Positions 26,149 to 47,790 are shown, counted from the stretch's first letter. The stretch: DNA of 64,000 nucleotides from an uncultured Acidobacteriota bacterium (GCA_963804995.1 CAWDSK010000005.1:704001-768000); one strand, 5' to 3'. The notes: generated by a model not told the origin, from the letters alone. A program made the numbers and translations.

Positions 26149-26484
26149 TTAGGGTTTGGACTCGCTCGTATTCGTCAATGCAGAATTGCGGGGTGAGTCA
26201 AGGGAGTCGAAGAGGACTGAAGCCAAATGATCTGGAATCCTCTTGTAGCCCTCTTTTCTTACCCATCGGTCCAACCTTGCAATAAAGGCATACCTCCGCA
26301 ACTCTCTTTCTTCTACACCTAAAGCCCGTGCCAATGCTCTACAGATTTGTCGGGTTGGGGGATCTGTTTTCTCCTTCTCCAGTTGGCTTATGTAGGCACT
26401 AGTAAGACGGCATTTTTGGGCTAGCTCGCTTTGAGTTAATTCCGCGTGCAGTCTGAGGTCCTTTAGGTGGGGGCCGAATCTCAT
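26149..26484 (-). CDS. XRE-family HTH repressor
   Basis: LKDLRLHAELTQSELAQKCRLTSAYISQLE; divergent from recombination operon. Confidence 0.85.
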   Translation of the reverse strand: MRFGPHLKDLRLHAELTQSELAQKCRLTSAYISQLEKEKTDPPTRQICRALARALGVEERELRRYAFIARLDRWVRKEGYKRIPDHLASVLFDSLDSPRNSALTNTSESKP

Positions 26485-26519
26485 TGCACGCCGATAGTAC
26501 CACAATTGCAAAAAAGCTC

Positions 26520-26572
26520 TTGACAAGATGGGGGCGGCAATCTAGAATAAAGAAAGTAACTTACTTTCTTTA
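26520..26572 (+). promoter_or_regulatory. Sigma70 promoter with an overlapping perfect palindromic operator
   Basis: TTGACA(26520)-17 bp-TAGAAT(26543); TAAAGAAAGTAA-C-TTACTTTCTTTA at 26548-26572. Confidence 0.8.
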
Positions 26573-26587
26573 GTGAGGCGGGTACAG

Positions 26588-27142
26588 ATGTTGAGTGCCG
26601 AAAGGTTGAAACAAGCCGACAAGCTGCCGGACAGCAGTGGTGCCACAAATCCGTGCTATGTCACCCACGGAGATCTACTGGGCCTTGCCACAGAAAACCA
26701 CTGTCAAGGGATAGTGACTGAGCCAGTGCTTCCGCTGTGCCGGCCGGAAAAGAACTTCTGGGTTTTTAAAGCCACGGTTTACAAATCCTCCAAATGCCGC
26801 GGCTTTGTTGGTTACGGCGATGCTCATCCTGGCAATGTCTCTCCTTTGATTTTCAACAATGCCGAGATGCGCATGGCGGAAACGCGCGCCGTCAATCGTG
26901 CCTTGCGCAAGGCCTACGGCATTGGTCTCTGCTCGCTCGAGGAGCTTCCGCCTTGGCGTATGAGCACCGAGCAAGTCTCCGCGTTGCGCCGGACGCTGCA
27001 AATGCGCCCGGCGTTCCAGAAAGGAGCCCAGCATGCGCACCAAAATCCAAGGCCTCAGCCAGGCAACGGAACGAAGCCCTCTGGTCGAAGGCCTGTATCG
27101 AGCCCGAGTGGTTCACTTCGAGCTCCCCGGGCACGCCGCTAA
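26588..27142 (+). CDS. Phage-like protein, candidate Rad52/Sak-type single-strand annealing protein
   Basis: YVTH..LL, FKATVY...GYGDA, MAETRAVNRALRKAYGIG resembles the Rad52-like AxTxAxKRA...GIG segment; context. Confidence 0.5.
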   Translation: MLSAERLKQADKLPDSSGATNPCYVTHGDLLGLATENHCQGIVTEPVLPLCRPEKNFWVFKATVYKSSKCRGFVGYGDAHPGNVSPLIFNNAEMRMAETRAVNRALRKAYGIGLCSLEELPPWRMSTEQVSALRRTLQMRPAFQKGAQHAHQNPRPQPGNGTKPSGRRPVSSPSGSLRAPRARR

Positions 27143-27470
27143 GCCTTGTCGGAGAGTGACGTTCTTGATTCTTGACCCTCCCCAGTATGCCGGCCGCTAC
27201 GTGCGCACGCGGCTCTACTGCCATGAGCGCGCCCTTTGGAAGCTCCGTTGGTTCTTGAATGACTTCAACTACGACGCCGACCTCCTGGCCGCCGACGAGT
27301 TAGACGACCGCCGCGTGGTGGGTCTGGAAGGGGTCATTCGCGTTGCCTATTGGGGAAACGACGGTCACCGCCGTTTGGATGTCGAGGGCTTCGCTCCCAG
27401 CGAGCGTTGGGCCGATCTTTCCGTTCATCAACCATCCTGTGAAAGCCTCGCGGAGGCTGCTCAGGCTTAG
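27033..27470 (+). CDS. DUF669/SSB-like phage protein
   Basis: LVEGLYRARVV, GRYV, ALWKLRWFL pattern; sits between annealing-like and nuclease genes. Confidence 0.5.
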   Translation: MRTKIQGLSQATERSPLVEGLYRARVVHFELPGHAAKPCRRVTFLILDPPQYAGRYVRTRLYCHERALWKLRWFLNDFNYDADLLAADELDDRRVVGLEGVIRVAYWGNDGHRRLDVEGFAPSERWADLSVHQPSCESLAEAAQA

Positions 27471-27505
27471 ACTTCGGGATAGAACTATCTTGAAAGGAGG
27501 GGATC

Positions 27506-28294
27506 ATGGATCATTACAGTTACACGCAACTTTCCACCTATCTGCAGTGCCCGCTGAAGTACAAGTATCACTACCTGGAAGGCTGGCAGGAAACGGAAGA
27601 CAAAGCCAGTCTCGTCTTCGGCCGAGTGTTTCAAAGCGCCGTCGAAGCCCAATTCCTGCTGCCTGACTCCGTGCGGTTCTTCACCGAGCGCTGGACGGGA
27701 GTCAAGGAAATGCCGCTTGAGTTTACCAACGGTGATAGTTGGGAGAAGATGCTCGAGCAGGGCCAGTCGCTCCTGGAACAGTTCCGCCAGGACAAGCGGG
27801 TCCTAATTGAGGACGGCCGAACGGATTTTCAGGTCAAGTTCCGCCGTCCCCTGCCGCTCAGCCAGAAGCATTTCCTGGCCTATGTGGATGCCATCGGGTA
27901 TGTCGATGGGCGCCACAGCCTGATTGAGTGGAAGACCACTACGCAATCCTACCCGGAGAACCTGGGCCGAGTTTTAGAACTCGATCCCCAGTTGGTCTGC
28001 TACTCTTGGGCGGCGGAGAAGCAGGAGGTGTGTCTCGTAAACTTCGTACGGAAGAAGTTGCCGGAGATCCAGTACCTGCGGGCGCGCATCCGCAAGCGCC
28101 AGTGGAAGGCCTTTGAACAGACCCTGGACCTGCTGGCGAGCGAGATGGAAGCCGGGCACTTCTACCCCCGTTCGGGGATTCGTTATCCCAACAACCAGTG
28201 TTTGAACTGTGCCTATTTGGGGCTGTGCCTGAGGAAGAAGGCCCTGGTGGAAGAGAAGCTGGTCAAGGTGGAGGAGTTGGCGGTCCATGGATAA
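27506..28294 (+). CDS. PD-(D/E)XK nuclease, RecB/AddB/Cas4-like, with Fe-S cysteines
   Basis: SYTQL..Y.QCP, VDAI, IEWKT, QLVCY, CLNC...C; AAAGGAGG RBS. Confidence 0.85.
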   Translation: MDHYSYTQLSTYLQCPLKYKYHYLEGWQETEDKASLVFGRVFQSAVEAQFLLPDSVRFFTERWTGVKEMPLEFTNGDSWEKMLEQGQSLLEQFRQDKRVLIEDGRTDFQVKFRRPLPLSQKHFLAYVDAIGYVDGRHSLIEWKTTTQSYPENLGRVLELDPQLVCYSWAAEKQEVCLVNFVRKKLPEIQYLRARIRKRQWKAFEQTLDLLASEMEAGHFYPRSGIRYPNNQCLNCAYLGLCLRKKALVEEKLVKVEELAVHG

Positions 28295-28985
28295 GGCGCG
28301 GGCACAACAGGTTCTGGCCCGGATCGATGAGATCCTGCGTTGGGAGCAGCGGACGGACCAGCAAAAGGACCAGAAGTTTGCCGAGCTGGGAAAGCACCTG
28401 TGCGTGGTGAGGAAGCACGGGTACTGGCGGCTGCGGCACAAAAGCTTTGAGGCTTACCTGGAGGAGAAGTTTCCGGACTCGCGGCGGAAGGCGTATTACC
28501 TCATGTCGATTCATGACCACCTGCCGCAAATCCCGGCGCCGGAGATCGAGGAACTAGGCTGGTCAAAGGCGTTGGAACTGGCAAAAGTGGCCAGAAGTGA
28601 AGGTCGACGATTTGACAGTGCAACCTGGTTGCACAGGGCGCAGGAGTCGACGAAGCAGGAGTTGAAGGAAGCGGTTCACAAGTACTTCACGGGGGAAGAC
28701 TACGAGCCTTACGAGATGGTTTACTTCAAGCTGTTTGAGAGCCAGTTGCCGGTGGTGGAAAGGGCCCTGTACGTGGCCTCGCGGATGGTGGGGACGGAGC
28801 GGTCGCGGGGTTACTGCCTGGAACTGGTGTGCGCGGATTTTCTGGCAGGTAGGGGGGAGGAGTCGTCGCCGGACGAGATCTTGATGGTGATCCACCGCCT
28901 TGTGCATCTGCTGCCGCGCGAGTACCAGACACGGCTTGTCGGCCAGAATGGGGGCAGGGAATTGGAGACAGCCGGCAAATGCTGA
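28287..28985 (+). CDS. Conserved hypothetical protein ('gene X'); 3' part repeated downstream
   Basis: Coupled to neighbours by overlaps; C-terminal ...RGYCLELVCADFLAG recurs at ~34.7, 36.0 and 46.1 kb. Confidence 0.75.
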   Translation: MDKARAQQVLARIDEILRWEQRTDQQKDQKFAELGKHLCVVRKHGYWRLRHKSFEAYLEEKFPDSRRKAYYLMSIHDHLPQIPAPEIEELGWSKALELAKVARSEGRRFDSATWLHRAQESTKQELKEAVHKYFTGEDYEPYEMVYFKLFESQLPVVERALYVASRMVGTERSRGYCLELVCADFLAGRGEESSPDEILMVIHRLVHLLPREYQTRLVGQNGGRELETAGKC

Positions 28986-29254
28986 AGAGAGTGAAGCGGA
29001 TCAAGCTGGGGAGCCAAATCTACCGGCGTTTGATGAAGCGGGTGCTGGAGCGGGACGAATGGCGATGTCAGAAGTGCGGGTCGCTTGAGAATCTCCAGGT
29101 CCACCACAAGATCAAAAGGAGCCAAATGGGCAACGACTCGCTTGAGAATTTGGTGACGCTGTGTGCCCGCTGCCACATGGCCGAGCACGGGCAGCTTTTC
29201 TATACGGTTCAGGCGATCAGGGTATGTGCCAAGCCAAAAGCGAGGAAGAAGTAA
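28979..29254 (+). CDS. Small HNH endonuclease (master copy)
   Basis: RDEWRCQKCG...VHH...NLVTLCARCH...H. Confidence 0.9.
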   Translation: MLKRVKRIKLGSQIYRRLMKRVLERDEWRCQKCGSLENLQVHHKIKRSQMGNDSLENLVTLCARCHMAEHGQLFYTVQAIRVCAKPKARKK

Positions 29255-29422
29255 TGTCCCAGGCCATGGCGATTTCGGGCTTTGGCAATTCGGAATTGGT
29301 GTCGGACATAGGAAGATAAATCTCTGAAGTAATAGTGGGCAAAATCCTCGGCCAGCTCAGCATGGCCGATTCAGCGTGGAACTTCCCGTTTCCTATGTGA
29401 AAGACCGATGTATAATGGCGCC

Positions 29423-29989
29423 ATGGCAGTCGAAGTGATTCCCAAGCTTACCTACGAAGAGTTTCGCCAGCTTCCCGAAGACGGCAAGCGCTACGAATTG
29501 ATCCAAGGGAGGGTGCGCGTGAGTCCATCTCCGAGTGCTCGGCACCAGTCCGTTACATTAAACCTGGCGACTAGCCTTCGCCCCTTCGTCCTCAAGAACC
29601 GGCTGGGTGAAGTCTTCGTTGCCCCGCTCGATGTACGCCTGAGCGAGGATACCGCCCTCCAGCCGGACCTGATCTTTGTTGCCACTGCGCGTCTGGAAAT
29701 CGTGCAGGAGAATTTCATCGCCGGAGTCCCGGACCTGGTGGTGGAGATCCTGTCCGCCTCCACGGCGGCCCACGACCGGGCTACAAAACTGAGCCTATAT
29801 GCCCAGGCGGGCGTCCCCCACGTCTGGCTGATGGATCCCCTGCCGCGGACGGTGGAACTCCTCCAGCGCGCCGCCGACAAATACCTGGTCGAGGCGGTCT
29901 ATGCCGGTTGGCAAACCCTCACTTCCTCACTGTTTCCCGGTTGGGAAATCACCCTTGACGAACTCTTCCGCTTTCCCGCTCGCCCTTGA
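29423..29989 (+). CDS. Uma2 family endonuclease
   Basis: RYELIQG, PSPSARHQ, QPDL, PDLVVEILS, K...Y...GV..W..DP; TATAAT 6 nt before ATG. Confidence 0.88.
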   Translation: MAVEVIPKLTYEEFRQLPEDGKRYELIQGRVRVSPSPSARHQSVTLNLATSLRPFVLKNRLGEVFVAPLDVRLSEDTALQPDLIFVATARLEIVQENFIAGVPDLVVEILSASTAAHDRATKLSLYAQAGVPHVWLMDPLPRTVELLQRAADKYLVEAVYAGWQTLTSSLFPGWEITLDELFRFPARP

Positions 29990-30116: not shown

Positions 30117-30198
30117 AGGTGTATTCTCATTAAAATACTGGTTAGTAGTCAGGTTATCATCTCTCCCGCCACCATTGACTCAGTTGCTAATTGGATTG

Positions 30199-30258
30199 CC
30201 ACCCCAAGAGCAAAAGAAGCCAGTGGGGAAGTGATGTGCTTGCGGAACACGAACAGCT
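30199..30258 (+). repeat. HNH repeat copy 1 (very degenerate, internal deletion)
   Basis: CCACCCCAAGAGCAAAAGAAGCCAGTGGGGAAGTGATGTGCTT aligns with master CCACCACAAGATCAAAAGGAGCCAAATGGGCAACGACTCGCTT. Confidence 0.6.
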
Positions 30259-30747: not shown

Positions 30748-31035
30748 ATGATCGACCTTCGCGAAGTTCGTTCGGTCACAGAGTTTCAGCGCAATCTCAA
30801 GGGCTATGTCGGGCGGCTCAAAGCGAAGAAGATTCCCCTGGTATTGACGGTCAATGGCCGGGCGGAACTCATCGTGCAGGATGCCGGCAGCTATCAGGCG
30901 TTGCTTGACCGGTTGGAGCGTGCTGAGACAGTAGCCGCTATCCGTCAGGGGATGGAAGAGTTCGAACGCGGCGAAGGAATACACCTGAAACAGGCGGAGC
31001 GACAACTCCGGAAACGACATGGCTTTTCGCGTTGA
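30748..31035 (+). CDS. Phd/YefM family antitoxin
   Basis: SVTEFQRN, PLVLTVNGRAELIVQDA..YQ. Confidence 0.85.
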   Translation: MIDLREVRSVTEFQRNLKGYVGRLKAKKIPLVLTVNGRAELIVQDAGSYQALLDRLERAETVAAIRQGMEEFERGEGIHLKQAERQLRKRHGFSR

Positions 31036-31198
31036 GATTTCACCGGGGGCTTTCCACGACCTCGACGAAATCGCCGGGTACATCAAGCAGCAGGGAAGCT
31101 TCGAGCAGGCCGAAGTGTGGTTCAATGAGATCATGGCTGCCATCCGACGGCTATCAGACATGCGGGAAAGCTTCGTCGAGTACGGATCATCGTGCTAA
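31019..31198 (+). pseudogene. Truncated RelE/ParE toxin
   Basis: MAFRVEISPGAFHDLDEIAGYI...WFNEIMAAIRRLSDM, then unrelated sequence and stop at 59 aa. Confidence 0.7.
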
Positions 31199-31259: not shown

Positions 31260-32159
31260 ATGATTAAGAAAATGAAGTCTCCGCTATTACAAGCCGCGAA
31301 TCGCGCCAACAGTCTCAAATCAACAGGACCTCAAACAGTACTTGGTAAGGCGCAATCCAGCCGCAATGCAATGAAATATGGCGTATTTGCCGGGGTACAC
31401 GTGGCGAGCATGAAAGATCTCGGCGAGGATCCTGCCGCCTTCGGGCAGCTCGGTGAATCCCTCCGCCAAGCTTTTTGCCCCCAGGATGCATTCGAGCAGA
31501 TGTTGGTTGAAGACATGGCGGAGATTCGCTGGCGCAGGCAAAGGCTCATGCGCGCAGAAGCCGGAATATTGGCTTCCAAAAGGCGCGAGTTCATTATCCA
31601 GCGAGAATGGAAAGAAGCCAACTACGGCAGGATTTCCAACGGAGAGGCAAAGGACATACCCTATCCCAATATGGGGCTGGTGTCGCTTGGTCCCTCAGAT
31701 GAGAACATCGCTGAGATCATCGATTTGTTGGAGGATCTTAAGCATTCGATTGAAACCGAGGGCTTTGCGGAGGAGGAGTTTTGGCGCGTCAAGGCGGTTT
31801 ATGGGGAGAAGCCTAGTTACACGGGCAGGCACTTGAGGGAACTGTTTGATAGTGCTCCGAAGTGGGTGAAGGAAGATTGTGTCAGGCACTCTGAAGAAGT
31901 TGAAGAGTTCCGGGGACCCATCCTCGCAATCCTCACCAAAGAAATTGCGTTTTTCAGGAAGACGGCGGAATTGCATAACGCAGGGGACGCGAAGGTAACT
32001 GAGGCTTTGATGGATAGTCAAATGATCCCCTCACAAGAGGATCTGCGGAAGATTATGGAGTACGAGGCTGCGCTTGAAAGGCAGTTTGAAAGAAAGCTGC
32101 AACAGCTGGTGGCGTGGCGACGGTCTAAGGGAGAGGTTAGTGCGACCGATGTGCCATAA
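31260..32159 (+). CDS. Hypothetical phage/satellite-type protein with STGPxTxxGK...NAxKxG motif
   Basis: AANRANSLKSTGPQTVLGKAQSSRNAMKYG; W.R.R and YE..LER motifs. Confidence 0.65.
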   Translation: MIKKMKSPLLQAANRANSLKSTGPQTVLGKAQSSRNAMKYGVFAGVHVASMKDLGEDPAAFGQLGESLRQAFCPQDAFEQMLVEDMAEIRWRRQRLMRAEAGILASKRREFIIQREWKEANYGRISNGEAKDIPYPNMGLVSLGPSDENIAEIIDLLEDLKHSIETEGFAEEEFWRVKAVYGEKPSYTGRHLRELFDSAPKWVKEDCVRHSEEVEEFRGPILAILTKEIAFFRKTAELHNAGDAKVTEALMDSQMIPSQEDLRKIMEYEAALERQFERKLQQLVAWRRSKGEVSATDVP

Positions 32160-32511: not shown

Positions 32512-33090
32512 ATGCTTGACTTGCGTTCCAAGGGGCGGCAGCGGCTCCTAGCCTATTACTTCACCAATCCCGGGGCCCGGTGCCATCTGCGGGACTTGGC
32601 GGAGCGCCTGAGCATTGATCCCTCCAACCTATCCCGAGAGCTGCGACGTTTGGAGCGTGAGGGACTTTTCCGGTCGGAAGTAAGCGGCCGGCAGAAGTAT
32701 TTTCAGCTCAACCGGGAGTATCCCTTATTCCGCGAGGTCCGTGGCATCGTTGCCAAAACAATCGGTGCGGCGCCTCTGATTGCAAATTCCGTCAGAGCCC
32801 TTGCGGACATCGAGGAAGCCTATCTCTACGGGTCGTTCGCGCGAAACCAACAGGATGCTGCAAGTGACATCGATTTGCTCGTGATCGGCGCGCCGCGTGG
32901 CGAAGTTCTGGCGGAAGCCATGCGGAAGCTGGAGCGGCAACTGGGGCGGGAAATCAATTATACGGTTATATCGCGCAATGAATTCCGGTCGCGCCGCGCC
33001 CGGAAAGATGCTTTCCTGGAAAGTGTCTGGAGGCATAAGCGCGTTTCGCTCGTCGCTCAACATGAAGAAGCTGAAGCCGCACACAATTGA
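32512..33090 (+). CDS. wHTH plus minimal nucleotidyltransferase (MNT) antitoxin
   Basis: N-terminal HTH; LYGSFAR...SDIDLLV. Confidence 0.85.
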   Translation: MLDLRSKGRQRLLAYYFTNPGARCHLRDLAERLSIDPSNLSRELRRLEREGLFRSEVSGRQKYFQLNREYPLFREVRGIVAKTIGAAPLIANSVRALADIEEAYLYGSFARNQQDAASDIDLLVIGAPRGEVLAEAMRKLERQLGREINYTVISRNEFRSRRARKDAFLESVWRHKRVSLVAQHEEAEAAHN

Positions 33091-33475
33091 CTGGGCGCAA
33101 ATCGAGCGCTTCCTCGCGAGCGCCGACAAGAAGTTGGCCTTGGCGCATAAAATCCTCGCGTTTGATGAGGAGGCATGCCTGCAACAAGCCTACGAAGCGA
33201 TGCTCCGGGCTTCCTTAGGGTTTATGTTCAGCCACGGCTTCCGGGCCAGGAGCCAACCCGGCCATCACATCGCCATCATCGAGTTCGTGCGGGGGCGAAT
33301 TGATCCCAAACACGCCGGTTGGCTCACCGTCTTAGACCGTCTCCGCCGAAAACGGAATATGGCTCTCTATGACGACGCAGGATTCGTCTCCCATCACGAA
33401 GCAGTGGAGGCCCTCGCCTCCGCCCTCCACTTCATAGAGGTCATCCGCACTAACGTCGCTGCAAGAAAACCTTGA
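33062..33475 (+). CDS. HEPN domain toxin
   Basis: AYEAML.A, GHH, RRKRNMALY; overlaps MNT gene. Confidence 0.8.
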   Translation: MKKLKPHTIDWAQIERFLASADKKLALAHKILAFDEEACLQQAYEAMLRASLGFMFSHGFRARSQPGHHIAIIEFVRGRIDPKHAGWLTVLDRLRRKRNMALYDDAGFVSHHEAVEALASALHFIEVIRTNVAARKP

Positions 33476-33577: not shown

Positions 33578-33802
33578 ATGATAGGGCGGGTCTTGGAGCG
33601 AGACGGATGGCGATGTCAGAGGTGCGGCTCGCTGGAGAAACTCCAGGTCCATCACAAGACCAAGAGAAGCCAATTGGGCAACGACTCCCTCGATAACCTC
33701 GTCACCCTGTGTGCCTACTGCCACATGGAAGAGCATGGGCAGCTTTACTATACGGGACCAGCGGTCAGAGTGTGTAACAAGCCCAAGCCACGAAGGAGGT
33801 GA
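33578..33802 (+). CDS. HNH endonuclease, repeat copy 2 (N-terminally shortened)
   Basis: RVLERDGWRCQRCG...VHH...NLVTLCAYCHMEEHG. Confidence 0.75.
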   Translation: MIGRVLERDGWRCQRCGSLEKLQVHHKTKRSQLGNDSLDNLVTLCAYCHMEEHGQLYYTGPAVRVCNKPKPRRR

Positions 33803-33895
33803 GGACCCGGCCGGCAGTAATTTCTGGAGTCAACAGTCCGTGGTCCTTAGCAAGTAGCGAGAGACGAGCTCCAGAGGTTGAGCGGAATGAATTCC

Positions 33896-34327
33896 TTACT
33901 TCGCCGCTCGCAAAGGATTAACGACCTTCATACCGTCAAAGTCCTTTTCGTTGGCGGTGACCACGATGCAATCATTCGCTTTGGCCACGGCGGCGACGAT
34001 CATGTCGAGCGCGCTCCGCGGCGTGCCCCTCGCCCTCCCCTCGGCCATCAGCCGCGCCCAGAGGAGACCTGCTTTCTCGTCAAACGGAAGCACGCGACCG
34101 GCGAACAGTGCGAGCGGCCCTTCGGGGCCCGCGAACCATCTCTCCAACTGCCTTCGCTTCTTTCCGGCGGGCCTTTCCAGCACCCCCCGCCAGATCTCGG
34201 CGACGGTCAGGGAGGAAATGAACAGCTCCTGGTCAGCTTGTTCAGACATCCAGGTGATCAGAGATTGCGACGGCACGGGCTTGGTGGCATCGCTGATAAC
34301 ATTAGTGTCGAGGAGATAGCGAGTCAC
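33896..34327 (-). CDS. vapC: PIN domain VapC toxin
   Basis: YLLDTNVISD, LTVAEI, LDMIVAAVA, VVTANEKDF. Confidence 0.9.
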   Translation of the reverse strand: MTRYLLDTNVISDATKPVPSQSLITWMSEQADQELFISSLTVAEIWRGVLERPAGKKRRQLERWFAGPEGPLALFAGRVLPFDEKAGLLWARLMAEGRARGTPRSALDMIVAAVAKANDCIVVTANEKDFDGMKVVNPLRAAK

Positions 34328-34626
34328 AGATCAACCTTACGGCCGCCCGTGACCGAACGGCTGAAGTGGAGATTGGCACCCACCAAAGGCGACCGGCGCA
34401 AGGCCGTAAGGATGCCTCCCTTTTTCGGTGTTTCGCCGGAGATACTCCGGCGGACCGCGTCACGAACCCGCGTAGAGTCCGGCCCTTGCTCCGCGAGCCG
34501 CTTGGCCAGAGAACGAATCAGGTGACGATCCGTCTTGAGCCCCAGCACCTCGAAACGAGCCATGCCTCGGTGGTTGAGGCGTTGGCGGTAGTTCCTCAAC
34601 GCTCGTTTTTGTGATGTGTCGCTCAT
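34324..34626 (-). CDS. Putative antitoxin of adjacent VapC
   Basis: MSDTSQKRALRNYRQRL...RFEVLG; 4-nt overlap with vapC. Confidence 0.7.
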   Translation of the reverse strand: MSDTSQKRALRNYRQRLNHRGMARFEVLGLKTDRHLIRSLAKRLAEQGPDSTRVRDAVRRSISGETPKKGGILTALRRSPLVGANLHFSRSVTGGRKVDL

Positions 34627-36575: not shown

Positions 36576-36694
36576 GTGCGTATTCTCGCCGGACGAAATC
36601 AAATCCAAAAAATCCCAATCGAGGTTTTTATCGCCGGACCCGTGTTGCCCACTGCCATTTCTACATGGGTTTCGAGTTAGGAGGAGTGAAAACC

Positions 36695-39485: not shown

Positions 39486-42400
39486 GTGGGCCCAAGGTGA
39501 GTCTGGGTGAGTTGGCCCTCTCCCTGAAAAGCACCCAGGTAAGTTCGAATGTAGTCGGCCACCACACCGATATGCTGTGTCCGGCAGGTAACGTGATCGC
39601 CCGGCAGCTCGTGAACATCCACCTGCGAGACCAACCTCCCCCAGCCGGCCGTGGGGTCAGTCGGATATTCGTGTAGCAGGGACTTGGTCCGTAACAGCAC
39701 GATGCGGCCCTGCAAAGGTTTTGGGCGGTAGTTCATCAAGATGGCACCAAACCGTAGATCACGAAGAGACTCCAGGGGATCATCGAAAGCCGGGGAGGGG
39801 ACACCCAACTCCTCGGGCGGAGTCCCCAGCAGCCGCAGAACCTTTCTCCTCGCCGTCTGCAAAGGGAGAGCAACGAGTGCCCCCATGCCCTGGCGCAACG
39901 CGGCTTTGGCGCGTAACACATGATTGCGAACCCGGCCGTAGGCAAGATCCTGCCCATTGTCATCGACCCTGGCCAGCCAGCCCACGCTGCGGATCAACGC
40001 CTTCAGCCAGCCGAAGTGCGCCGGAACTGCAGTGTCGAGCAGAATCACCAATCCTACCTCGCGACCCTGCTGCACCATCTGCCGCGCCATCTCATAGGCT
40101 ACATTCCCGCCGTTGCAGAAGCCGCCCAGCAAATAAGGACCTTGAGGCCGAAGTGCGACCAGGTGCCGGATATTCTCCTCAGCCATCGCTTCAACACTAG
40201 GAAGTAATGGCTCGCCGCCGAACCCATTTGGCATTACGCCAAAGAACGGTTGGTCGGGGCCGAGCAACCGCGCCAATTTCCGGCAGTAGAGCCCACCCGT
40301 CGAATCGCCATGGAGGAAAAAGAAAGGCACATGAGAACCTCCGGGTTGAATGGGCACGATCGCCGACTTCATCTCTTTACTACTCTCGGCTCGCAGGCAC
40401 TCTGCCAGATGTTGAATGGTTGCCTCGGCAAACAAGGTTGAGAGCGGAAGTCGCCTGCCGCAGGCCTCCACGATCCGGCCCATCATGCGCACGGCAAGGA
40501 GAGAGTGACCGCCCAAATCGAAGAAGTCGTGCTGGATACCAATCGGGTGCACGTCGAGAAGCTCTTCCCAGATTTCTGCCAATTGCCATTCAAGCACGTC
40601 GCGGGGCTCAACGTAGCGATCCTCAACCCGTAACTGTCGGCTCTCAACGGGTAGCGCCCGGCGGTCAACCTTCCCACTCGAGGTAAGGGGCAGGGCCTTC
40701 AAGGTTGTGTAGTCGGAGGGCACCATATAGTCGGGCAGCTTTTGCTTTAGAAAATCCCGCAACGCTTTCCAGGCGGGCGCACTTTCCGGACAACGGGGCA
40801 CCACGTAAGCTACCAGGCGCTTTCCGCCCGGGCTCTCCTCCCGAACCACGACGGCCGCGGCCGATACTGCCGGGTGCTCTGCCAAGGCCGACTCGATTTC
40901 TCCCAATTCAATGCGGAAACCCCGAACCTTTACCTGATTATCAAGGCGGCCCAAGAACTCAATATTGCCGTCCGGCAAGTAGCGGCACAAGTCGCCGGTT
41001 TTGTAGAGACGAGCCCCAGGTTGGATGCTAAAGGGATCAGGAATAAATTTCTGACAGGAAACCTCGGGCCGGTTCAGGTACCCACGGGCCAGCCCATCTC
41101 CCCCGATGCATAATTCGCCGGCAACCCCGATTGGGACAGGCTGCAAATACCGGTCGAGAATGTACACGCGGGTGTTGGCGATGGGCCTGCCGATGGGAAT
41201 CGATCTGGCCAAGGGGCTTTGGTTGCGGGGAATCCGATAGCAACATGCAAAAACTGCGCTCTCCGTCGGCCCGTACCCGTTTACCAACTCCGTGTTGGGC
41301 AGCAGCGACAAGGCACGACAAATATCAGGAACGGAAAGCGCCTCCCCTCCCACGAGCAACTGCGAAACGGGTAAGAGTGCATCCGGAGCGGCATCAATCA
41401 CCGTGCTGAACAGCGAAGGCGTAAACCACAAGGTCGTCACCTTCTCTTTCTTGATTACGGCGCGGAGTTGCCCCAGATCCGGGATACGCTGCGGAATAAG
41501 CACGCAGCGCCCTCCGTGCAGGAGGGCGCCCCAAATCTCGAAGGTGCTCGCATCGAAGGAAATCGAGCCGTACTGGAGAAACACCTCATCCGGCCCGAAG
41601 TGGATGTAATCCGTTCCACACAGCAGGCGCACAATGCCGCGGTGGAGAACCTCGACTCCCTTCGGGGTTCCTGTGGACCCAGAGGTGTACAGCACGTAGG
41701 CCACATGATCGGGCTTCACTTCGAAGCGGGGATTGTGATTATCGGCCCCGGGGTCGGAATCCTCTAACCTGTCGAGCCAGACCACCCTTAGGTCCTGTTG
41801 AGGCAGCCCATGTTTCAGTCGCTCCTGGGTCAACAATACCTTAATTCCCGAATCCCCCAACATGAAAGCCAATCGTTCTTTCGGATAGGTAGGGTCCAGA
41901 GGAACAACTGTACCTCCCGCCTTGAGAACTCCCAGTAGTCCTACCACCATCTCCAGCGAGCGATCCACGAAGAGCCCCACTCGGGTATCCAATCCAACGC
42001 CCCAGCCTCGAAGTTGATGAGCTAGCCGATTGGCCTGACGGTTCAATGCTGCATAGGTCAGACGGTGCTCTTCCAAGGTAACCGCCACGGCTTCCGGCCG
42101 TCGCTCGGCCTGCGCCTCGAACAGTTCCTGAAGGGTCGAATCTCGCGGATACTCTACGTTCGTACGATTCCATTCCACCAGAATCTGATTCCGCTCGGTG
42201 GGAGTCAGCAAGGGAAGCGAGGCCAAGTGAGCGTCGGGTTCGGTGACGATGGCCCCGAGCAGCGTACGGTAGTGGCTAGCCATGCGCTCGATCGTGCCCT
42301 GATCAAAAAGATCGGCGTTGTAAACGAAAGAACACTTCAACTCCCGGCCCCTGGGGAGGATCTCAAGGGTGAGATCGCAGGGCGCAACCGGGACCTCGAA

Positions 42401-43651
42401 CTCGAACTCACTCACCTGCAGGCCGGGAATCTCGATCTTTTCCTCAGGCAGGTTTTCAAGATTAAATACCACCTGGAAAAAGGGCGTTGTGCTCAGGTTT
42501 CGATCCGGGCGCGGAGTCTCCAGTACTTGCCCAAACGGCAAATCCTGGTGGCTGTAAGCGCCGCGGCAGGTCTCGCGAACACGCCCGAGCAGTTCCCGAA
42601 ATGTGGGATTACCCGACAGGTTTGTCCGAAGAACTAGAGTGTTGAGGAAGAGCCCGATCAACTTCTCCGTCTCCACCCAATTCCGGCCTGCTGTCATCGA
42701 TGCGATGGCTATATCTTCAGATCCCGTATAACGCGAGAGCAGCACCTGGAAGGCCGCCAGGAGTGGCATGAACAGCGTGGCATTCTCCTGCCGGCCCAGT
42801 GCTTTCAGAGCATCGGCGAGCCGCTCCGGCAAGAGGACTTCGGCACATCCGCCCTGGTGCGACTGAGCGCTTAAACGGGGCCGGTCCGTCGTTAGGTCCA
42901 CGGGAACGCAGCCGCTCAATTGCTTTTTCCAGTAAAGAAGCTGGCGTTCGAGCAGTTCGCCGCCCACGCGCTGACGCTGCCAGAGAGCGAAATTCCCATA
43001 CTGGATTGGGAGCTCCGCGAGTGCAGGCGAACTCCCCGTAGTTAATGCGCCGTAGAGATTTGCGAACTCGTCGGCAAAGACCCGGGCTGACCATGCGTCA
43101 AAAGCGATGTGGTGGAATACGAGGAGCAAGACGTGCTCCTGCTCGCATAGCCGGAAGAGCGTGGCTCGCAAAAGGGGATCCTTGGCCAAATCGAAGGGCC
43201 GGAGAGCCTCCTCCGTGGCCAATCCCTTGGCATGCGACTCGCGCTCGGTGGGAGCCAGTTTAGAGAGCTCAATTAGGCGCAGGTCCAGAGCCAGGCTTGC
43301 AGATATAACCTGTGCAGGTTGACCGTCGCGGGTAAAGAAGCGCGTGCGCAGAACCTCGTGACGATCGATGATGGTTTGCAGGGCCTGCCGGAGGGCGGCC
43401 TCGTCAAGTGACCCCGTCAGACGCCGGGCGAACGGGCGATTATATGCGGGACTCCCTGGCTCCAACTGGTCGAAAAGCCAGAGCTTCTCCTGCGCGAACG
43501 AAAGCGGTAGAGAGCCCCGGTCAGCCAGCCGCGGAATAACGCGGGGAACGCGGCGGGACTGGAGCTTCTCCCGCCAACTTGCATCGAGCTGCGTGGATTC
43601 CTGCCGGGGAGTGTCCTCAGGCTCGGGCGGGATGGCATCCGTGCTTTTCAC
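39482..43651 (-). CDS. NRPS module C-A-T-TE (probable GTG start at 43651)
   Basis: LSFAQE, HHIAFDAWS, YTSGSTGTPKG, YGPTE, YKTGD, FFDLGGHSL, GGFCNGG (TE with Cys at the nucleophile position). Confidence 0.9.
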   Translation of the reverse strand: MKSTDAIPPEPEDTPRQESTQLDASWREKLQSRRVPRVIPRLADRGSLPLSFAQEKLWLFDQLEPGSPAYNRPFARRLTGSLDEAALRQALQTIIDRHEVLRTRFFTRDGQPAQVISASLALDLRLIELSKLAPTERESHAKGLATEEALRPFDLAKDPLLRATLFRLCEQEHVLLLVFHHIAFDAWSARVFADEFANLYGALTTGSSPALAELPIQYGNFALWQRQRVGGELLERQLLYWKKQLSGCVPVDLTTDRPRLSAQSHQGGCAEVLLPERLADALKALGRQENATLFMPLLAAFQVLLSRYTGSEDIAIASMTAGRNWVETEKLIGLFLNTLVLRTNLSGNPTFRELLGRVRETCRGAYSHQDLPFGQVLETPRPDRNLSTTPFFQVVFNLENLPEEKIEIPGLQVSEFEFEVPVAPCDLTLEILPRGRELKCSFVYNADLFDQGTIERMASHYRTLLGAIVTEPDAHLASLPLLTPTERNQILVEWNRTNVEYPRDSTLQELFEAQAERRPEAVAVTLEEHRLTYAALNRQANRLAHQLRGWGVGLDTRVGLFVDRSLEMVVGLLGVLKAGGTVVPLDPTYPKERLAFMLGDSGIKVLLTQERLKHGLPQQDLRVVWLDRLEDSDPGADNHNPRFEVKPDHVAYVLYTSGSTGTPKGVEVLHRGIVRLLCGTDYIHFGPDEVFLQYGSISFDASTFEIWGALLHGGRCVLIPQRIPDLGQLRAVIKKEKVTTLWFTPSLFSTVIDAAPDALLPVSQLLVGGEALSVPDICRALSLLPNTELVNGYGPTESAVFACCYRIPRNQSPLARSIPIGRPIANTRVYILDRYLQPVPIGVAGELCIGGDGLARGYLNRPEVSCQKFIPDPFSIQPGARLYKTGDLCRYLPDGNIEFLGRLDNQVKVRGFRIELGEIESALAEHPAVSAAAVVVREESPGGKRLVAYVVPRCPESAPAWKALRDFLKQKLPDYMVPSDYTTLKALPLTSSGKVDRRALPVESRQLRVEDRYVEPRDVLEWQLAEIWEELLDVHPIGIQHDFFDLGGHSLLAVRMMGRIVEACGRRLPLSTLFAEATIQHLAECLRAESSKEMKSAIVPIQPGGSHVPFFFLHGDSTGGLYCRKLARLLGPDQPFFGVMPNGFGGEPLLPSVEAMAEENIRHLVALRPQGPYLLGGFCNGGNVAYEMARQMVQQGREVGLVILLDTAVPAHFGWLKALIRSVGWLARVDDNGQDLAYGRVRNHVLRAKAALRQGMGALVALPLQTARRKVLRLLGTPPEELGVPSPAFDDPLESLRDLRFGAILMNYRPKPLQGRIVLLRTKSLLHEYPTDPTAGWGRLVSQVDVHELPGDHVTCRTQHIGVVADYIRTYLGAFQGEGQLTQTHLGPT

Positions 43652-43671
43652 AAAGATTTCAATCCTGCAAC

Positions 43672-45516
43672 CTAATTTGAGGATGGCCGCTCGGTCTCGT
43701 CGCGACTCACTCTCTCGCCTTCTAGCTGCAGCTTGGCACCCAGCACCAGAGTCTGGTCCGCAATCGTCGGTGCATCCAGGAAGTCGAGCAAAGTAATGTC
43801 CACGTCCAACTGTTGGCACACGCGAGCGACGGTCCGCGCAGCCAGCAGCGAATCACCGCCCAGGTCGAGAAAGCGCTGATGGATGCCGACGGAAGGGATC
43901 CTAAGCACCTCGCACCAGATCTCGGCAAGGAATTTCTCTGCGGGTGTGCGCGGAGCCACGCTCTCGCTTGATTGGTCGGAAACAGCCACCGCCTGCTCCA
44001 CCAAGCCCAGCTTTTCCGCCAAGCCGATTCGCTGGGGTTTGCCTGTCGGCCCCAGCGGGATGGCATTGACCGCGAGGATGCGGCGGGGGACCTTGAAGTG
44101 GGCCAGGCGTGCGGCCACGACCTGGCGGAGCTGCTTTTCAGTGACACTTGTATCGCGGAGGACAACCGCTGCCGCTACCTCCTGCCCAAGTGACTTATCT
44201 GGCATGGCAAAGACCACTGCTTGGGCGACAGCCGGGTGCTGCAATAAGACCTCTTCCACCTCGCGTGGCGAGACCTTTTCGCCCCCCCGATTGATGATCT
44301 CCTTGATGCGGCCCTCGATGTAGAGGTAGCCGTCCGCGTCCAGGCGGCCCAGGTCTCCCGTGCGGAACCAGCCATTAGTGAAGGCCTGGTCTGCAACCTG
44401 ATGGGCGTAACCGTGCATGACGTTCGGCCCACGCACAACGATCTCAGCCACTTCACCTTGTGCCAGCAGTCGCGCGCCGCCTTTTTCCATGATGGCAATT
44501 TCTGTGCCGGTCGCCACGCCCACGGAACCCGGCTTGCGGATTTTGGGCGGAAGCGGGCTGGATGCAATCTGGTGGGCGGCCTCGGTCATTCCATAAGCCT
44601 CAACAACCGGGACGCCGAACACACTCTCCAGCTCCGCCATCAGCGTGGGGGAAAGCGGAGAAGAGCAGGAGCGGATGAATCGCAAGCGCTCCCGGTGGAT
44701 GGCTTGGTGGTTCTGAGCACCGCGGGCCAGAATTGCCCGGTGCATGGTTGGCACGGCGGTATACCAGGTCGGTTGGAAAGCGGCCGCCCAGTCGAAAAAG
44801 CGTGGCGCATCAAAGCCGGGCGTCGTGACTACTCCTGCCCCGGCGCACAGTGAAGACAAGACCGATGCCACGAGACCGTGAATGTGGAAAAGCGGCATGA
44901 TGTTCAGGCACCGATCGGACGGAGTGAGTGCCAGCGCGTTGCGGATGTGGTCGGCGGAGGCGCACAGGTTCTGGTGGGTGAGCGGAACCATCTTCGGCCG
45001 TGACGTGGTTCCAGAAGTATGGAGCACAAGGGCGATGTCCTCCGCCTCAACAGTTCCGGGAGGGGACGCGGGCGTGGGGCTGACTCCCTGAAAACTGAAA
45101 AGTCCTGCCGCATCTTCCCATTTCGGGGCAATTTCGATTACACGAATTCCACGCCTTCGGGCTACTTCAATGGCGGGTGAGATCACTCCGGCTTGGACTA
45201 CTAGCGCCTTGGCCTCCAAGTCCGACAGGTAGAATTCAAATTCGGAGGCGCCATAGGCCGGATTCAGCGGGGCGGCTACGGCGCCGCAGGCAATTGAAAG
45301 AACCCCCACCGCCATCTCTGGACCGTTGGGCAGGACGATCGCCACCTTGTCGTTGCGATGGATGTCGAACGAGCTCAGGCAATTCACAACCTCATGGACC
45401 TGTGTGATCAACCGCCCGAAGGTTAACGGAGTACGCCCCGGCGCCAGGATCGCCTCTGAATCAGGCGAAAGCCGAGCGTGACTCTCGAGCAGTTGGTAGG
45501 TCGACGAAAACGTCAT
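43672..45516 (-). CDS. Acyl-CoA ligase-like adenylation domain (oxalate-CoA ligase-like) fused to a carrier protein
   Basis: LHTSGTTSRPK, PLFHIHGL, FIRSCSSPL, EAYGMTEAAHQ, RGGEK; C-terminal FLDLGGDSL. Confidence 0.85.
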   Translation of the reverse strand: MTFSSTYQLLESHARLSPDSEAILAPGRTPLTFGRLITQVHEVVNCLSSFDIHRNDKVAIVLPNGPEMAVGVLSIACGAVAAPLNPAYGASEFEFYLSDLEAKALVVQAGVISPAIEVARRRGIRVIEIAPKWEDAAGLFSFQGVSPTPASPPGTVEAEDIALVLHTSGTTSRPKMVPLTHQNLCASADHIRNALALTPSDRCLNIMPLFHIHGLVASVLSSLCAGAGVVTTPGFDAPRFFDWAAAFQPTWYTAVPTMHRAILARGAQNHQAIHRERLRFIRSCSSPLSPTLMAELESVFGVPVVEAYGMTEAAHQIASSPLPPKIRKPGSVGVATGTEIAIMEKGGARLLAQGEVAEIVVRGPNVMHGYAHQVADQAFTNGWFRTGDLGRLDADGYLYIEGRIKEIINRGGEKVSPREVEEVLLQHPAVAQAVVFAMPDKSLGQEVAAAVVLRDTSVTEKQLRQVVAARLAHFKVPRRILAVNAIPLGPTGKPQRIGLAEKLGLVEQAVAVSDQSSESVAPRTPAEKFLAEIWCEVLRIPSVGIHQRFLDLGGDSLLAARTVARVCQQLDVDITLLDFLDAPTIADQTLVLGAKLQLEGERVSRDETERPSSN

Positions 45517-45576
45517 GGGATTGTTGACCTAAATGGACGTGTGCTATTTGCTTTCTACCGTTTTGCGCCCAGAATG

Positions 45577-45759
45577 TTAAGCGAAAAGCACTGGCACGGC
45601 AAGCCAGACCTCCATGCTTCCTCCGCGCAGACCCACAGGGAACTCCGCGAGGCTCTCGATGGCATCGCACAGTCCGTCGAACCATTCCCGCGTCGCGCCC
45701 CGAGCGATCCCGTCGAGGTCCCGCTCAGCCCGCTTTCGATATAGGACGCGGTACGCCAA
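45577..45759 (-). pseudogene. Truncated RelE/ParE toxin
   Basis: MAYRVLYRKRAERDLDGI...WFDGLCDAIESLAEFP, then divergent; 60 aa. Confidence 0.65.
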
Positions 45760-46021
45760 AGTGTTTCTTTCTCAATTGTGCATGAACCTGTTTAGCAGGA
45801 CGGCCCTCCCCCTTTTCCGCCAGGGCTTCGTTCACGGCCTCGATGGTTTCGAAGCGATCTTTCCACTCTTCATAAGCTTCGGCATCGAACACGACGAAGC
45901 GCGCTTTGCCCTGCACAGTCAATACCAGGGGCCTATGGGTTTTCTTGAGCAGGCGGGCGAACCGGGCCGTTTGGCGTTTGAAGGTCGTCAGAGGATGGAT
46001 GTCCTGGGCTACGTCAATCAT
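45725..46021 (-). CDS. Phd/YefM family antitoxin
   Basis: IHPLTTFKRQ, PLVLTVQGKARFVVFDAEAYE. Confidence 0.82.
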   Translation of the reverse strand: MIDVAQDIHPLTTFKRQTARFARLLKKTHRPLVLTVQGKARFVVFDAEAYEEWKDRFETIEAVNEALAEKGEGRPAKQVHAQLRKKHFGVPRPISKAG

Positions 46022-46078: not shown

Positions 46079-46515
46079 CGCGCTCGCGGAGGTACTGCCT
46101 GGAACTGGTGTGTGCAGATTTCCTGGCGGGGAGAGGTGAGGAGTCGACACCCGAGGAGATCTTGATGATGATCCACCACCTCGTGCATCTGCTGCCGCGG
46201 GAGTATCAGGCGCATCTTGTTGGCCAAATCGCAAGATGGAAATTGGAGACCCCCGGAAGATGTTGAATAAAGTCAAGCGGATCAAGCTGGGAAAGCAGCA
46301 GATCTACCGGCGGTTGATGAAGCAGGTCCTGGAGCGAGACAGTTGGCGATGTCAGAAGTGGGGCTCGCTGGAAAACTTCCAGGTCCACCACAAGATCAAG
46401 AGTAGCCAGCGGGGAAATGACGCGCTCGAAAGCCTCGTGACCCTCTGTGCTCACGAACATGGCAGAGCGTGGGCAGCTTTTCTACACAGTCCCGGCTGCC
46501 AGAGTGTGCAGCAAG
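46079..46515 (+). repeat. Gene X-HNH repeat copy 6 (degenerate HNH)
   Basis: Aligns with ~28797-29235; CQKC changed to CQKW; indels near the end. Confidence 0.9.
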
Positions 46516-46624
46516 GTGACCGATTCCGCCAGAACCGCGCCTTTCAGTGAAACGGTCGGGATTGGCCTTGAATGAAGGGTTACCTGCGCTCATTGAATGC
46601 GAAAGTCGGTAAGCCTGGTCATTC

Positions 46625-47017
46625 TCACCAGATCGTGTGAAGCGCTTTCGACCGACGGATATCACGATCGGCCGTAACCAGAGGTAGGGCCTCAGCCAGC
46701 GCGGTAGCCCCGATCATTCGATCCGCCGGATCACTGGGATAAGCTGCGGGGAGTCCATGGGCGCGCACACAGGCACGGCCAGTGATTGGCAGGACAACGA
46801 ATCGGCTCTCGACTTCACTCAAGAAGGATTCCAGGCTGATGTCGAGATGGATGCGTCCTTTACTCGCGAGGGTTGTCAACTCCAAGAGAGTGATATCGGA
46901 AATTGCCACGCCATCTCCCTTCGCACGCGCCTTGTCGATGGCGGTTCTTGCCTTCCTGGAGAGCTGGCTTGGATCAAACGCCAGCCAGACGACTACGTGT
47001 GTGTCGACGAGAATCAC
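46625..47017 (-). CDS. vapC: PIN domain VapC toxin
   Basis: ILVDTHVVVW, ITLLE, DPADRMIGATA, LVTAD. Confidence 0.9.
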   Translation of the reverse strand: MILVDTHVVVWLAFDPSQLSRKARTAIDKARAKGDGVAISDITLLELTTLASKGRIHLDISLESFLSEVESRFVVLPITGRACVRAHGLPAAYPSDPADRMIGATALAEALPLVTADRDIRRSKALHTIW

Positions 47018-47241
47018 TTGAGGTTCCCCCAGTCTTCGATAGCGGGCGAAATGACGTTGCCGATAACCGCCCCCTTGCCACGGAGGAAGTGGTAGATCTC
47101 GTCTGTACCTTTGCCGGCGGGGACAAGCTTCGCCACGGGCCTGCCGTGTTTAGTGATCACTACAGTCTGTCTCTTGGCCTGAACCTCGTCCATGACCGCA
47201 AGGCAATGTGCCTTGAACGAACCCGCTGCCATTGTTTTCAT
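47014..47241 (-). CDS. Phd/YefM family antitoxin
   Basis: AGSFKAHCLAVMDEV, VVITKHGRPVAKLVP. Confidence 0.9.
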   Translation of the reverse strand: MKTMAAGSFKAHCLAVMDEVQAKRQTVVITKHGRPVAKLVPAGKGTDEIYHFLRGKGAVIGNVISPAIEDWGNLK

Positions 47242-47249
47242 CCAGGACT

Positions 47250-47281
47250 CCTTATCATAGTCATTATACCATGGTCATAAT
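47250..47281 (-). promoter_or_regulatory. Promoter/operator of the phd-vapC operon
   Basis: Minus strand ATGACCATGGTATAATGACTATGATAAGGAG: extended -10, ATGACYAT repeats, RBS. Confidence 0.6.
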
Positions 47282-47610
47282 CGCGTCCGACTAAGAAACG
47301 CCCTCCTATGGCCGGGACCGTGGATGGAGCGCAGAGCCGCTGGCTCCACGCTGCCGGGGAAGTGCTGCCTCTGGACGCAAGCAACGAAGCCCAGGGGATC
47401 CGATTCGATATTAGACCCCCTCAAGACAGCCTGGCGCGTCTTGGCCTACCAAAGCTGTAAACACCGCGTTCGTGTGGGCCACCATGCGCGTCTGCTTCCA
47501 ATTTGGGCTACCCGTTCTTTAGACTCTCCCGCCTGTTTCCACGAAGCACTCATGGCAGAAGCAGGTCAGGGAAGGTTTCTCACACCAGTCCTCCTGCGAG
47601 AACAGGAATC

Positions 47611-47790
47611 TTGTGCTCACTTTCATATGGGCTGAGCATGGACAGCTTCTCTATTCAGTCCCAGCCGCCAGAGTGTGCAGCAAGCCCAAACCACGTACGA
47701 AGTGCCAATCGCAGCCGCGGTGATTTGGTGACGGTTTCGGGTTGACAACCCATACATGGTGTTCGGTACGTTCTGAGTATGCTCCCGCTC
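47611..47790 (+). repeat. HNH repeat copy 7 (3' end only) plus ~90-nt tail shared with copy 4
   Basis: GCTGAGCATGGACAGCTT...AAACCACGTACGAAGTGCCAATCGCAGCCGCGGTGATTTGGT...TTGACA...TGGTGT. Confidence 0.85.

Follow-up and report, generated by a model that had tools for sequence, protein, structure and literature searches.

An integrase-less, toxin–antitoxin-rich cassette array delimited by truncated copies of a phage-related operon in an uncultured Acidobacteriota bacterium

Results

A five-gene operon and the pieces behind it

The stretch of DNA considered here, hereafter the window, is 64,000 nt long (GCA_963804995.1 CAWDSK010000005.1:704001-768000) and lies on contig C5 of the 7.55-Mb, 9-contig genome (G000) of an uncultured Acidobacteriota bacterium. 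Between positions 26149 and 47790 it carries an operon of five genes, A-B-C-X-HNH, and downstream of it a series of truncated copies of the operon's X-HNH end with different cargo genes between them. A first-pass annotation of the window had proposed one intact operon and seven further plus-strand copies of its 3' end, diverged and with different 5' starts. Self-BLASTN, together with a DNA profile made from 10 operon copies, some full and some partial, placed the intact operon at 26594-29297, and comparison of the 26-48 kb region with itself confirmed the repeated X/HNH pieces. Six plus-strand pieces were clear (profile E 6e-153 to 6e-16), with 64-85% identity to the intact copy and starts ranging from X nt 358 to HNH nt 183; the seventh is real but is a degenerate 73-nt scrap. 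In the whole genome the profile matched only seven times on C5 and twice on C6, so that chance is excluded as the origin of the pieces.

The operon is preceded by a divergent helix-turn-helix (HTH) repressor-like gene (26149..26526, minus strand, likely ATG at 26484; HTH_31 E 2e-12, phrog_3 repressor E 4e-10), which presumably controls it, whereas other operon copies have a different regulator or none. A putative sigma-70-like promoter (26520..26548, plus strand) is proposed from its match to the consensus at 11 of 12 positions with a 17-nt spacer. All five genes run on the plus strand: gene A (26588..27142), for a candidate Rad52/Sak-type annealing protein; gene B (27033..27470), a conserved gene with 252 homologues among 298 candidates; gene C (27506..28294), for a predicted PD-(D/E)XK nuclease; gene X (28287..28985), for a phage-related protein; and a gene for an HNH endonuclease (28979..29254; HNH E 2e-12), which overlaps the stop codon of X. 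A non-coding tail on the same strand (29255..29297; 40-130 nt in relatives) is common to many copies. Purifying selection acts on each of the five genes across 22 operon copies (dN/dS 0.08-0.12; 0.089 for A, 0.115 for B and 0.079 for HNH), and all five frames are open in 14, the other eight being cut by contig ends (four), lacking part of A and B (one) or having a broken C (three). Domain scans of the operon gave no transposase, reverse transcriptase or HUH domain.

Gene C matches PDDEXK_1 (E 7e-18) and a PHROG exonuclease (E 6e-16); its cysteine motifs occur in 22 of 22 operons and its catalytic pattern in 17, and judged by this domain and four-cysteine arrangement its product is predicted to be a Cas4/AddB-like PD-(D/E)XK nuclease, which probably binds Fe-S. 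HNH motifs are kept in 20-22 of the 22 operons. Gene X, with 2258 representatives, matches phrog_17202 (E 4e-18) and, below the cut-off, DUF3102 (E 4e-4). Its close relatives (76-91% identical) are titled Terriglobia or Acidobacteriota, weak homologues occur in 28 phage records, and in the two phage contexts examined these sit in DNA repair/recombination modules; a search of plasmids gave one weak match. Profiles of X, A and B against PDB sequences returned empty or chance-level matches. Two other readings of the HNH gene were rejected. A link to DUF222-HNH/REP13E12 found no Pfam match and no relevant paper, and the idea of a packaging module, with a terminase after HNH, did not hold in the single phage locus examined: there X-HNH lies among SbcCD, SSB and primase genes.

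Cargo of the array

The first cargo gene encodes a Uma2 family nuclease (29408..29989, plus; PF05685 E 2e-38). It is followed by degenerate piece 1 (30174..30246, plus), placed near 30199 by the first-pass annotation, which is of the tail-to-HNH nt 123 junction type; it went undetected by the DNA profile at E<=0.01 and was recognised by its 76.7% identity over 73 nt to a copy in the relative G042 (E 8e-8). Before piece 2 (33580..33842, plus; HNH nt 54 to tail, by DNA profile) come a phd antitoxin gene with a truncated parE-like stub (30748..31198, plus; PhdYeFM E 6e-6, the stub without a Pfam match), a hypothetical gene of family F3 (31260..32159, plus) that recurs beside this operon in relatives, and a nucleotidyltransferase (MNT) gene with a putative HEPN partner (32512..33475, plus; NTP_transf_2 E 2e-8). 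A vapC gene with an upstream antitoxin-sized gene (33896..34563, minus; PIN E 7e-14) then leads to piece 3 (34700..35207, plus; X nt 358 to HNH nt 174), whose closest relative among 63 intact copies is the window's own (84.7%). Beyond a DUF1902 gene (35400..35645, minus; E 1e-21) lies piece 4 (35968..36513, plus; X nt 449 to tail), a mosaic according to the DNA profile and breakpoint analysis, and beyond two hypothetical genes (36665..38159, plus), which have no family above the cut-off, comes piece 5 (HNH nt 115 to tail), the body of which (38466-38668) is preceded by a 90-nt leader shared with other copies (together 38376..38668, plus). The sixth cargo (38676..46021, minus; Pfam) comprises genes for a phosphopantetheinyl transferase (PPTase), a non-ribosomal peptide synthetase (NRPS; C-A-T-TE) and an A-T protein, a parE-like stub and phd. 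Piece 6 (46080..46517, plus; X nt 513 to HNH nt 257), with a broken HNH frame, is separated by a phd-vapC pair (46625..47241, minus; PIN E 6e-20, Phd E 3e-8) from piece 7 (47611..47781, plus; HNH nt 183 to tail), which the profile matches to 47730 and whose likeness to piece 4 continues to 47781. The 3' ends of the pieces vary as well, two stopping inside HNH and the 30.2-kb piece being an internal scrap, and no age gradient was evident along the window's array.

Pfam supported the earlier naming of Uma2, Phd (three genes), nucleotidyltransferase, PIN (two genes), DUF1902, PPTase and NRPS among the cargo, but both parE' stubs and the HEPN partner gave no Pfam match at E<=1e-4 and are so labelled from their position and motifs. 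Family F3 belongs to no PHROG or Pfam family; in distant relatives (L024, L027, L238, L241, L247-L249) it lies divergently upstream of the operon.

The first-pass annotation had seen neither integrase nor attC in cis, and this held: none of the 11 tyrosine recombinase (PF00589) matches of G000 falls in the window, the nearest on C5 being more than 400 kb away, and a surrogate for IntegronFinder, namely our own pattern with an R-box consensus, found no attC-like site in 29255-47800, compared with 0-6 in each of 30 random stretches. No tRNA or tmRNA was found in the window, and the array had no Rfam match at E<=0.5.

Recurrence and polarity in relatives

Of the 25 genomes of the genus, 6 had X-HNH DNA matches; at family level 25 of 118 did (three candidates scored per genome), and at class level the X profile matched 21 of 161. 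Each count includes G000. In five congeners the left and right flanks of the operon are unlinked, the left flank being present in one of the five. A metagenome set, comprising the 80 best of 217 confirmed stretches, was selected on a full X and is therefore unbiased as to downstream content. It held 43 extra matches, all on the same strand as the operon and none inverted. Downstream of the operon (190.7 kb) there were 35 X/HNH pieces, and upstream (131.8 kb) four X/HNH and four A-only pieces; pieces were present in nine of the 14 loci with at least 5 kb of downstream sequence. A, B and C account for ~63% of the operon, yet not one downstream piece of the 35 has its start in them. After eight duplicate loci had been dropped, 31 copies in 22 junction classes remained. 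Over the wider set, in which seven distant sets were excluded and genome loci were selected via X/HNH matches, the 5' end is internal in 129 truncated copies and falls in X or HNH in 120 of them; at the other end 65 pieces reach the end of HNH, 30 stop in X and 20 inside HNH. The array is polar.

The clearest array, in L185, has a lead operon, five pieces and toxin–antitoxin (TA) modules in four of its five intervals. Between successive copies in relatives we counted 47 intervals of 0.3-9 kb (median 1569 bp; those above 9 kb omitted), of which 27 contained TA pairs by our reading of the Pfam results, one a serine recombinase and five no called gene. The first-pass annotation had considered that each segment might carry its own integrase; there was no tyrosine integrase in any of the 47.

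Origin of the pieces and sharing of junctions

Relative to the intact copy, and with a 4-nt frame offset corrected, the window's pieces differ at 14/10/37% of codon positions 1/2/3, much as pairs of intact operons do (17/13/39%), and therefore diverged in the main as working genes elsewhere. The pieces are pseudogenes, mostly descended from other functional copies and later decayed; private changes at positions 1 and 2 amount to ~3% in pieces and 0.5-0.6% in intact copies. When 53 pieces were compared with 63 intact copies (one self-comparison row removed), the intact copy of the same genome was the closest for 15, which is above chance but a minority (mean relative rank 0.24). Most pieces are of foreign origin. 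The body of piece 5, for instance, has 68.5% identity to its own intact operon, compared with 85% to a G007 copy, and its leader is 84% identical to one that in G007 is joined to X nt 611.

A set of 111 truncated copies fell into 74 junction classes, 12 of them shared, scattered over the ~950 nt of X and HNH. Cargo families and cargo-to-X junctions are common to different genomes and stand there in different order. A VapBC cassette with a junction at X nt 447 comes immediately after the lead operon in L181 and after a truncated piece in L143; the junction at X nt 687 has different DNA behind it in six copies; and that at X nt 474, mostly behind gene F4, recurs in ten. The window's MNT cassette is 82% identical over 964 nt to a G014 cassette that directly follows an X-HNH copy. 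The window's HNH-end-vapBC cassette recurs in run X1 with 29 differences in 805 nt, preceded there by another HNH 5' half, on a single contig of 80% likeness that we regard as supporting only. No common motif was found at the junctions, and microhomology, where the donor state is visible, is mostly 0-4 nt, two longer cases being perhaps further decayed pieces.

Crossovers within X and HNH

A test of the PHI (pairwise homoplasy index) type on 22 operons gave z -8.7 overall and -4.6 for X-HNH; in single genes such tests were not significant, and an HNH-only set of all copies gave p 0.39. In two triplets, chosen after their profiles had been viewed, the change of relationship could be placed. The G007 C82 piece is of its junction-sharers' type up to ~X nt 620 and of its own genome's operon type beyond (p 3e-4), and in L117 likeness to the junction-sharer gives way to likeness to the cargo-sharer at ~HNH nt 200 (p 7e-4). 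A breakpoint scan put 22 of 33 long pieces, three of which are contig-edge leads, and 23 of 25 intact copies above all of 40 column-shuffled nulls, a null that ignores rate variation along the sequence.

Beyond what the first-pass annotation foresaw, the operon can also be a dispersed multi-copy element. G200, a 2-contig genome from another family, has 12 dispersed operons (L230-L241) whose cores are 94-95% identical, while identity falls to 77% in the HNH halves, 64% at the X end and 53% at the A 5' end. HNH has two 5' types and two 3' types, which occur in every one of the four combinations; for one quartet 111 informative sites form two unbroken runs, the third pattern being absent, with the switch inside HNH (p 1e-5). 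Crossovers therefore occur inside HNH between types that are ~65% identical. The flanks of the G200 operons are unrelated, with no target duplication and no shared termini (longest word common to left and right flanks, 7-11 nt), and no integrase, structural or replication genes were seen among the genes called around the 12 copies. The unit reaches new genomic sites without an integrase of its own.

Discussion

Probable displacement of the operon's 3' end

The feature described here is real, recurrent and unusual. The observations are best explained by an A-B-C-X-HNH unit of patchy distribution in Terriglobia, the copies of which undergo recombination with each other. Crossovers inside X and HNH were observed, as were reordered cassettes with shared junctions, and we consider it probable that the unit is a recombination module of phage origin, free of integrase, in which incoming DNA is anchored by the X-HNH end and the displaced old end is left behind. 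DNA from another copy, carrying its X-HNH and trailing cargo, would enter the cell, pair with the resident operon and cross over, leaving the lead operon intact. The incoming DNA would next be joined by its far end to X or HNH of the resident copy, and the earlier 3' end would be pushed downstream, together with the cargo behind it, as a 5'-truncated relic; this joint is presumably illegitimate, because the junctions are variable and free of motifs. Cargo between two pieces might later be moved, added or lost through two crossovers that retain the junction. TA cassettes may dominate because their loss between direct repeats is penalised, or as phage defence, and retention of this kind would act as a filter by analogy with superintegrons. 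Capture may take a single step, and A, C and HNH may have a part in it.

Comparison with known systems

In its working the array resembles the displacement arrays of rhs and type VI secretion system (T6SS) loci, and in appearance an integron, but it fails the tests that define either, as it does those of insertion sequence (IS) elements and intact prophages. Precedent for such an architecture, which the first-pass annotation had not recognised, is to be found in rhs C-terminal and Vibrio cholerae T6SS orphan-immunity arrays, where an intact lead is likewise followed by displaced truncated ends with foreign DNA between them and no integrase (PMC2935791, PMC5361080). Displacement of rhs tips by recombination with circles has been proposed there (Jackson et al., PMC2935791), as has homology-facilitated illegitimate recombination, noted as rare, for T6SS immunity arrays (Kirchberger et al., PMC5361080). 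In those arrays the variable part is the lead gene's toxin tip with its immunity gene, whereas here HNH is conserved, unrelated cargo (type II and IV TA, MNT-HEPN, NRPS) lies behind the HNH stop in either orientation, and the anchor locus itself encodes candidate recombination enzymes. In common with polymorphic-toxin arrays (rhs, contact-dependent inhibition (CDI) and T6SS), an intact lead precedes truncated same-strand ends and recombination takes place inside the repeated segment (breakpoint triplets, G200 quartet); the lead genes, however, have no Rhs or secretion domains and the cargo consists of TA and metabolic genes. Orphan modules of CDI and Rhs systems are reportedly related displacement arrays.

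Integrons and superintegrons are polar, TA-rich arrays of short cassettes between related repeats, and clusters of attC sites lacking integron-integrases (CALINs) are orphan clusters without a lead locus. Our array resembles them in its polarity, in its richness in TA modules, in the reordering of shared cassettes and in its orphan clusters (for a comparison with integrons see also PMC5361080). There is no adjacent IntI and, by the surrogate scan, no attC-like site; the repeats are pseudogene pieces of 60-900 nt with variable ends, and cargo is often inverted. The IS or transposon model finds no transposase domain, terminal repeats or target duplication in the operon or the 12 G200 copies, and the prophage or integrative-element model no integrase, att sites, structural or replication genes in the window's unit. 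Phage modules with Rad52-like recombinases (Sak/Erf/Red-beta; PMC3945230) are alike in combining a candidate annealase, a small gene and an exonuclease in one operon and in exchange between diverged sequences, and X homologues are found in phage repair modules; here, by contrast, no structural, replication or integrase genes are seen around the unit, and the substrate is apparently the operon's own end. Grounded (cryptic) prophages (PMC6379469) are likewise phage-derived, integrase-free and accumulate foreign genes, whereas here five genes are under purifying selection as a fixed unit, with up to 12 copies per genome, and cargo alternates almost one-to-one with X/HNH pieces.

Competing explanations

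A serious rival, which we nevertheless judge unlikely, is serial insertion followed by decay. Units of operon plus cargo would insert whole and in tandem, by an unspecified or trans-acting route, and deletions would strip the regulator and A-B-C from all but the lead copy, long repeats being purged and the short remnants held in place by TA pairs. In favour of this, whole units are found at many sites (the 12 copies of G200, a point that also tells against displacement), two full operons lie on one contig of G041, and in G034 a decayed second operon stands 9.5 kb behind the first. Secondary deletion does shorten 5' ends, as is seen from a leader that in G007 is joined to X nt 611 but in the window to HNH nt 115; A-only pieces exist, and the purging of long repeats could account for the missing starts in A-C. 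Yet not one of the 35 downstream metagenome pieces retains a start in these genes, no integrase, target duplication or shared terminus presents itself as a driver, and shared junctions occur at different positions in the arrays.

It is improbable that a tyrosine integrase acts in trans, site-specifically into X or HNH, with each circle bringing a replacement 3' end and displacing the old one. Integration with a replacement 3' end is the pattern known from e14 at icd. The X nt 474 junction of ten copies, several of them just upstream of a tRNA-adjacent tyrosine integrase, and the 11 tyrosine recombinase matches elsewhere in G000 would suit such a route, which is hard to reconcile with 74 junction classes over ~950 nt that share no motif, and with the lack of an attC-like site in the window's array; the integrase-linked pieces, besides, mostly stop inside X and therefore could not restore the operon. 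Local duplication, in which cargo is patched into a break near the operon's end, part of the resident X-HNH is duplicated as a long target duplication and decay follows, is still less credible. The pieces are nearer to their own intact copy than chance would have it, and their excess of private position-1/2 changes speaks for this reading too, but divergence lies mostly at third positions, as between functional genes, and piece 5 is far closer to the G007 copy than to its own operon. Transposition that begins at the 3' end (target-primed or rolling-circle) would yield 5'-truncated insertions of uniform orientation, as found, and is largely refuted by the varying 3' ends, by the absence of a reverse transcriptase or HUH domain from the operon and by G200 copies without a shared terminus, so that we give it very little credence. 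An assembly artefact can be dismissed as next to impossible: the two DNA runs found contain only 0.06 of the genome's words, but the copies are just 64-85% identical and enclose unique cargo, and the layout recurs in many independent assemblies.

Several observations weigh against the displacement of resident X-HNH ends proposed above. The first-pass annotation had suggested that X-HNH serves as a homology arm for capture and shuffling, and the recurrence of arrays, the shared and reordered junctions and the crossovers in X/HNH, including those between ~65% identical alleles, are in keeping with that; the PHI-type signal, however, is also present in A-B-C (z -3.6) and so is not confined to X-HNH. 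A global flank-sharing test, by which junction-sharers should be closer 5' and cargo-sharers closer 3', is confounded by a background gradient, and among junction and cargo classes we found no closed cycle, which would have ruled out a history of deletions alone. Arrays do stand behind homologous operons in other genomes, but many operons are without them: there are none in G200 despite its 12 operons, no pieces lie near the operons of G028, G027 and six other class members, and in G034 only scraps lie among TA genes near the operon. One gap of more than 9 kb in G041, outside the 47 intervals, is full of integrases, and tyrosine integrases at tRNA genes adjoin some X pieces in other genomes. 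The window's phd has an 86% copy at G000:C5:365683-366049 (L113), which extends into the very start of the parE-like gene and has no X-HNH in its vicinity. Finally, gene C is broken in operons that include that of L185, with its long array.

Candidate catalysts

Gene A, named annealing-like in the first-pass annotation, has at least 8000 homologues. Its placement with a Sak cluster of the Atlas (0.86; 122 shared features) is a lead only, and searches of Pfam, PDB sequences and NCBIfam gave no significant match to a single-strand annealing protein. A single-sequence fold (pLDDT 42) was unusable; an alignment-based model (pLDDT 62) matched RAD52 8tkq at Z 6.1 and a root-mean-square deviation of 4.9 over 101 residues, the longest alignment among the matches listed. 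An annealase is thus plausible from the model. Further points against displacement by the operon's own proteins are that the RAD52 match is tied with ribosomal uS5/dsRBD folds (Z up to 6.7), that Foldseek gave nothing for the model at E<=1e-3, and that gene B, formerly called SSB-like, had no Pfam match in any of 28 members and none in PDB sequences, which leaves that label unsupported here.

Rad52-like recombinases are described by De Paepe et al. (PMC3945230) as acting without RecA and tolerating divergence better. Since exchange takes place between sequences only 65-85% identical, we put the operon's own A and C proteins at about even odds with RecA as the catalyst. It is possible, though we would not bet on it, that the unit represents a new class of mobile element, without integrase or transposase, for which relaxed homologous recombination by proteins of its own suffices to reach new sites, to keep its copies alike and to capture cassettes for defence and addiction; a Rad52-like annealase and an Fe-S exonuclease would then act together, with nicking by X-HNH as the primer and the element's own 3' genes as the attachment arm. 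We found no description of the operon or its arrays in the open full-text literature, a scope outside which most subscription papers fall.

If the displacement reading is true, ordered and polar cassette arrays would be possible without integrase or attC, and such arrays would escape both integron finders and integrase-based island finders. The locus would offer a natural case of the rhs/T6SS displacement mechanism beside clonable candidate enzymes, and it may explain the pile-up of TA pairs without a mobility gene in hypervariable loci of soil Acidobacteria. An annealase-exonuclease set that crosses over at 65-85% identity would also be a candidate recombineering tool for a phylum that has few genetic tools.

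Further observations on the operon and its surroundings

Five small elements (L103, L115, L116, L126 and L095) have the order F4, X piece from nt 474, tyrosine integrase, and in four of them a tRNA gene (Arg, Gln, Ala, Arg) lies beside the integrase. A mirror layout occurs upstream of the operon in L181, L185, L191, L047 and L048, where a 3'-truncated A piece and the same two or three small genes precede the intact operon, which suggests capture at the operon's left end too. On contig C6 of G000 a TacA-GNAT pair stands between two X pieces (G000:C6:361917-363337; L093:16917-18337), beside an IS and far from the only intact operon. The G200 operons have unrelated promoters and A 5' ends, with tRNA genes ~0.2-1.6 kb downstream of three. 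At L242 (G200:C1:4076001-4094000) a repeat of 130-340 nt is present in about seven copies, 1.4-7 kb apart, between which lie small genes (one PemK-like) and X/HNH scraps; this repeat resembles sequence ~3-4 kb upstream of several G200 operons.

To the left of the operon (window 18478-25641 and 1-15000), genes that are apparently for surface polysaccharides adjoin two radical SAM genes, a putative PqqD-like gene, an S24 peptidase gene and an ABC exporter. In G043, G042 and G041 the operon has comparable surroundings, and in several distant relatives it is flanked by sugar-biosynthesis genes. A separate family of short intergenic direct and inverted repeats, together with a short tandem repeat, occurs at 9353-9411, 16669-16879, 56955-57437 and 18023-18198 of the window. 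To the right of the array (49710-63456) lie two cNMP-binding genes and a membrane-bound hydrogenase-like cluster, which are ordinary host genes.

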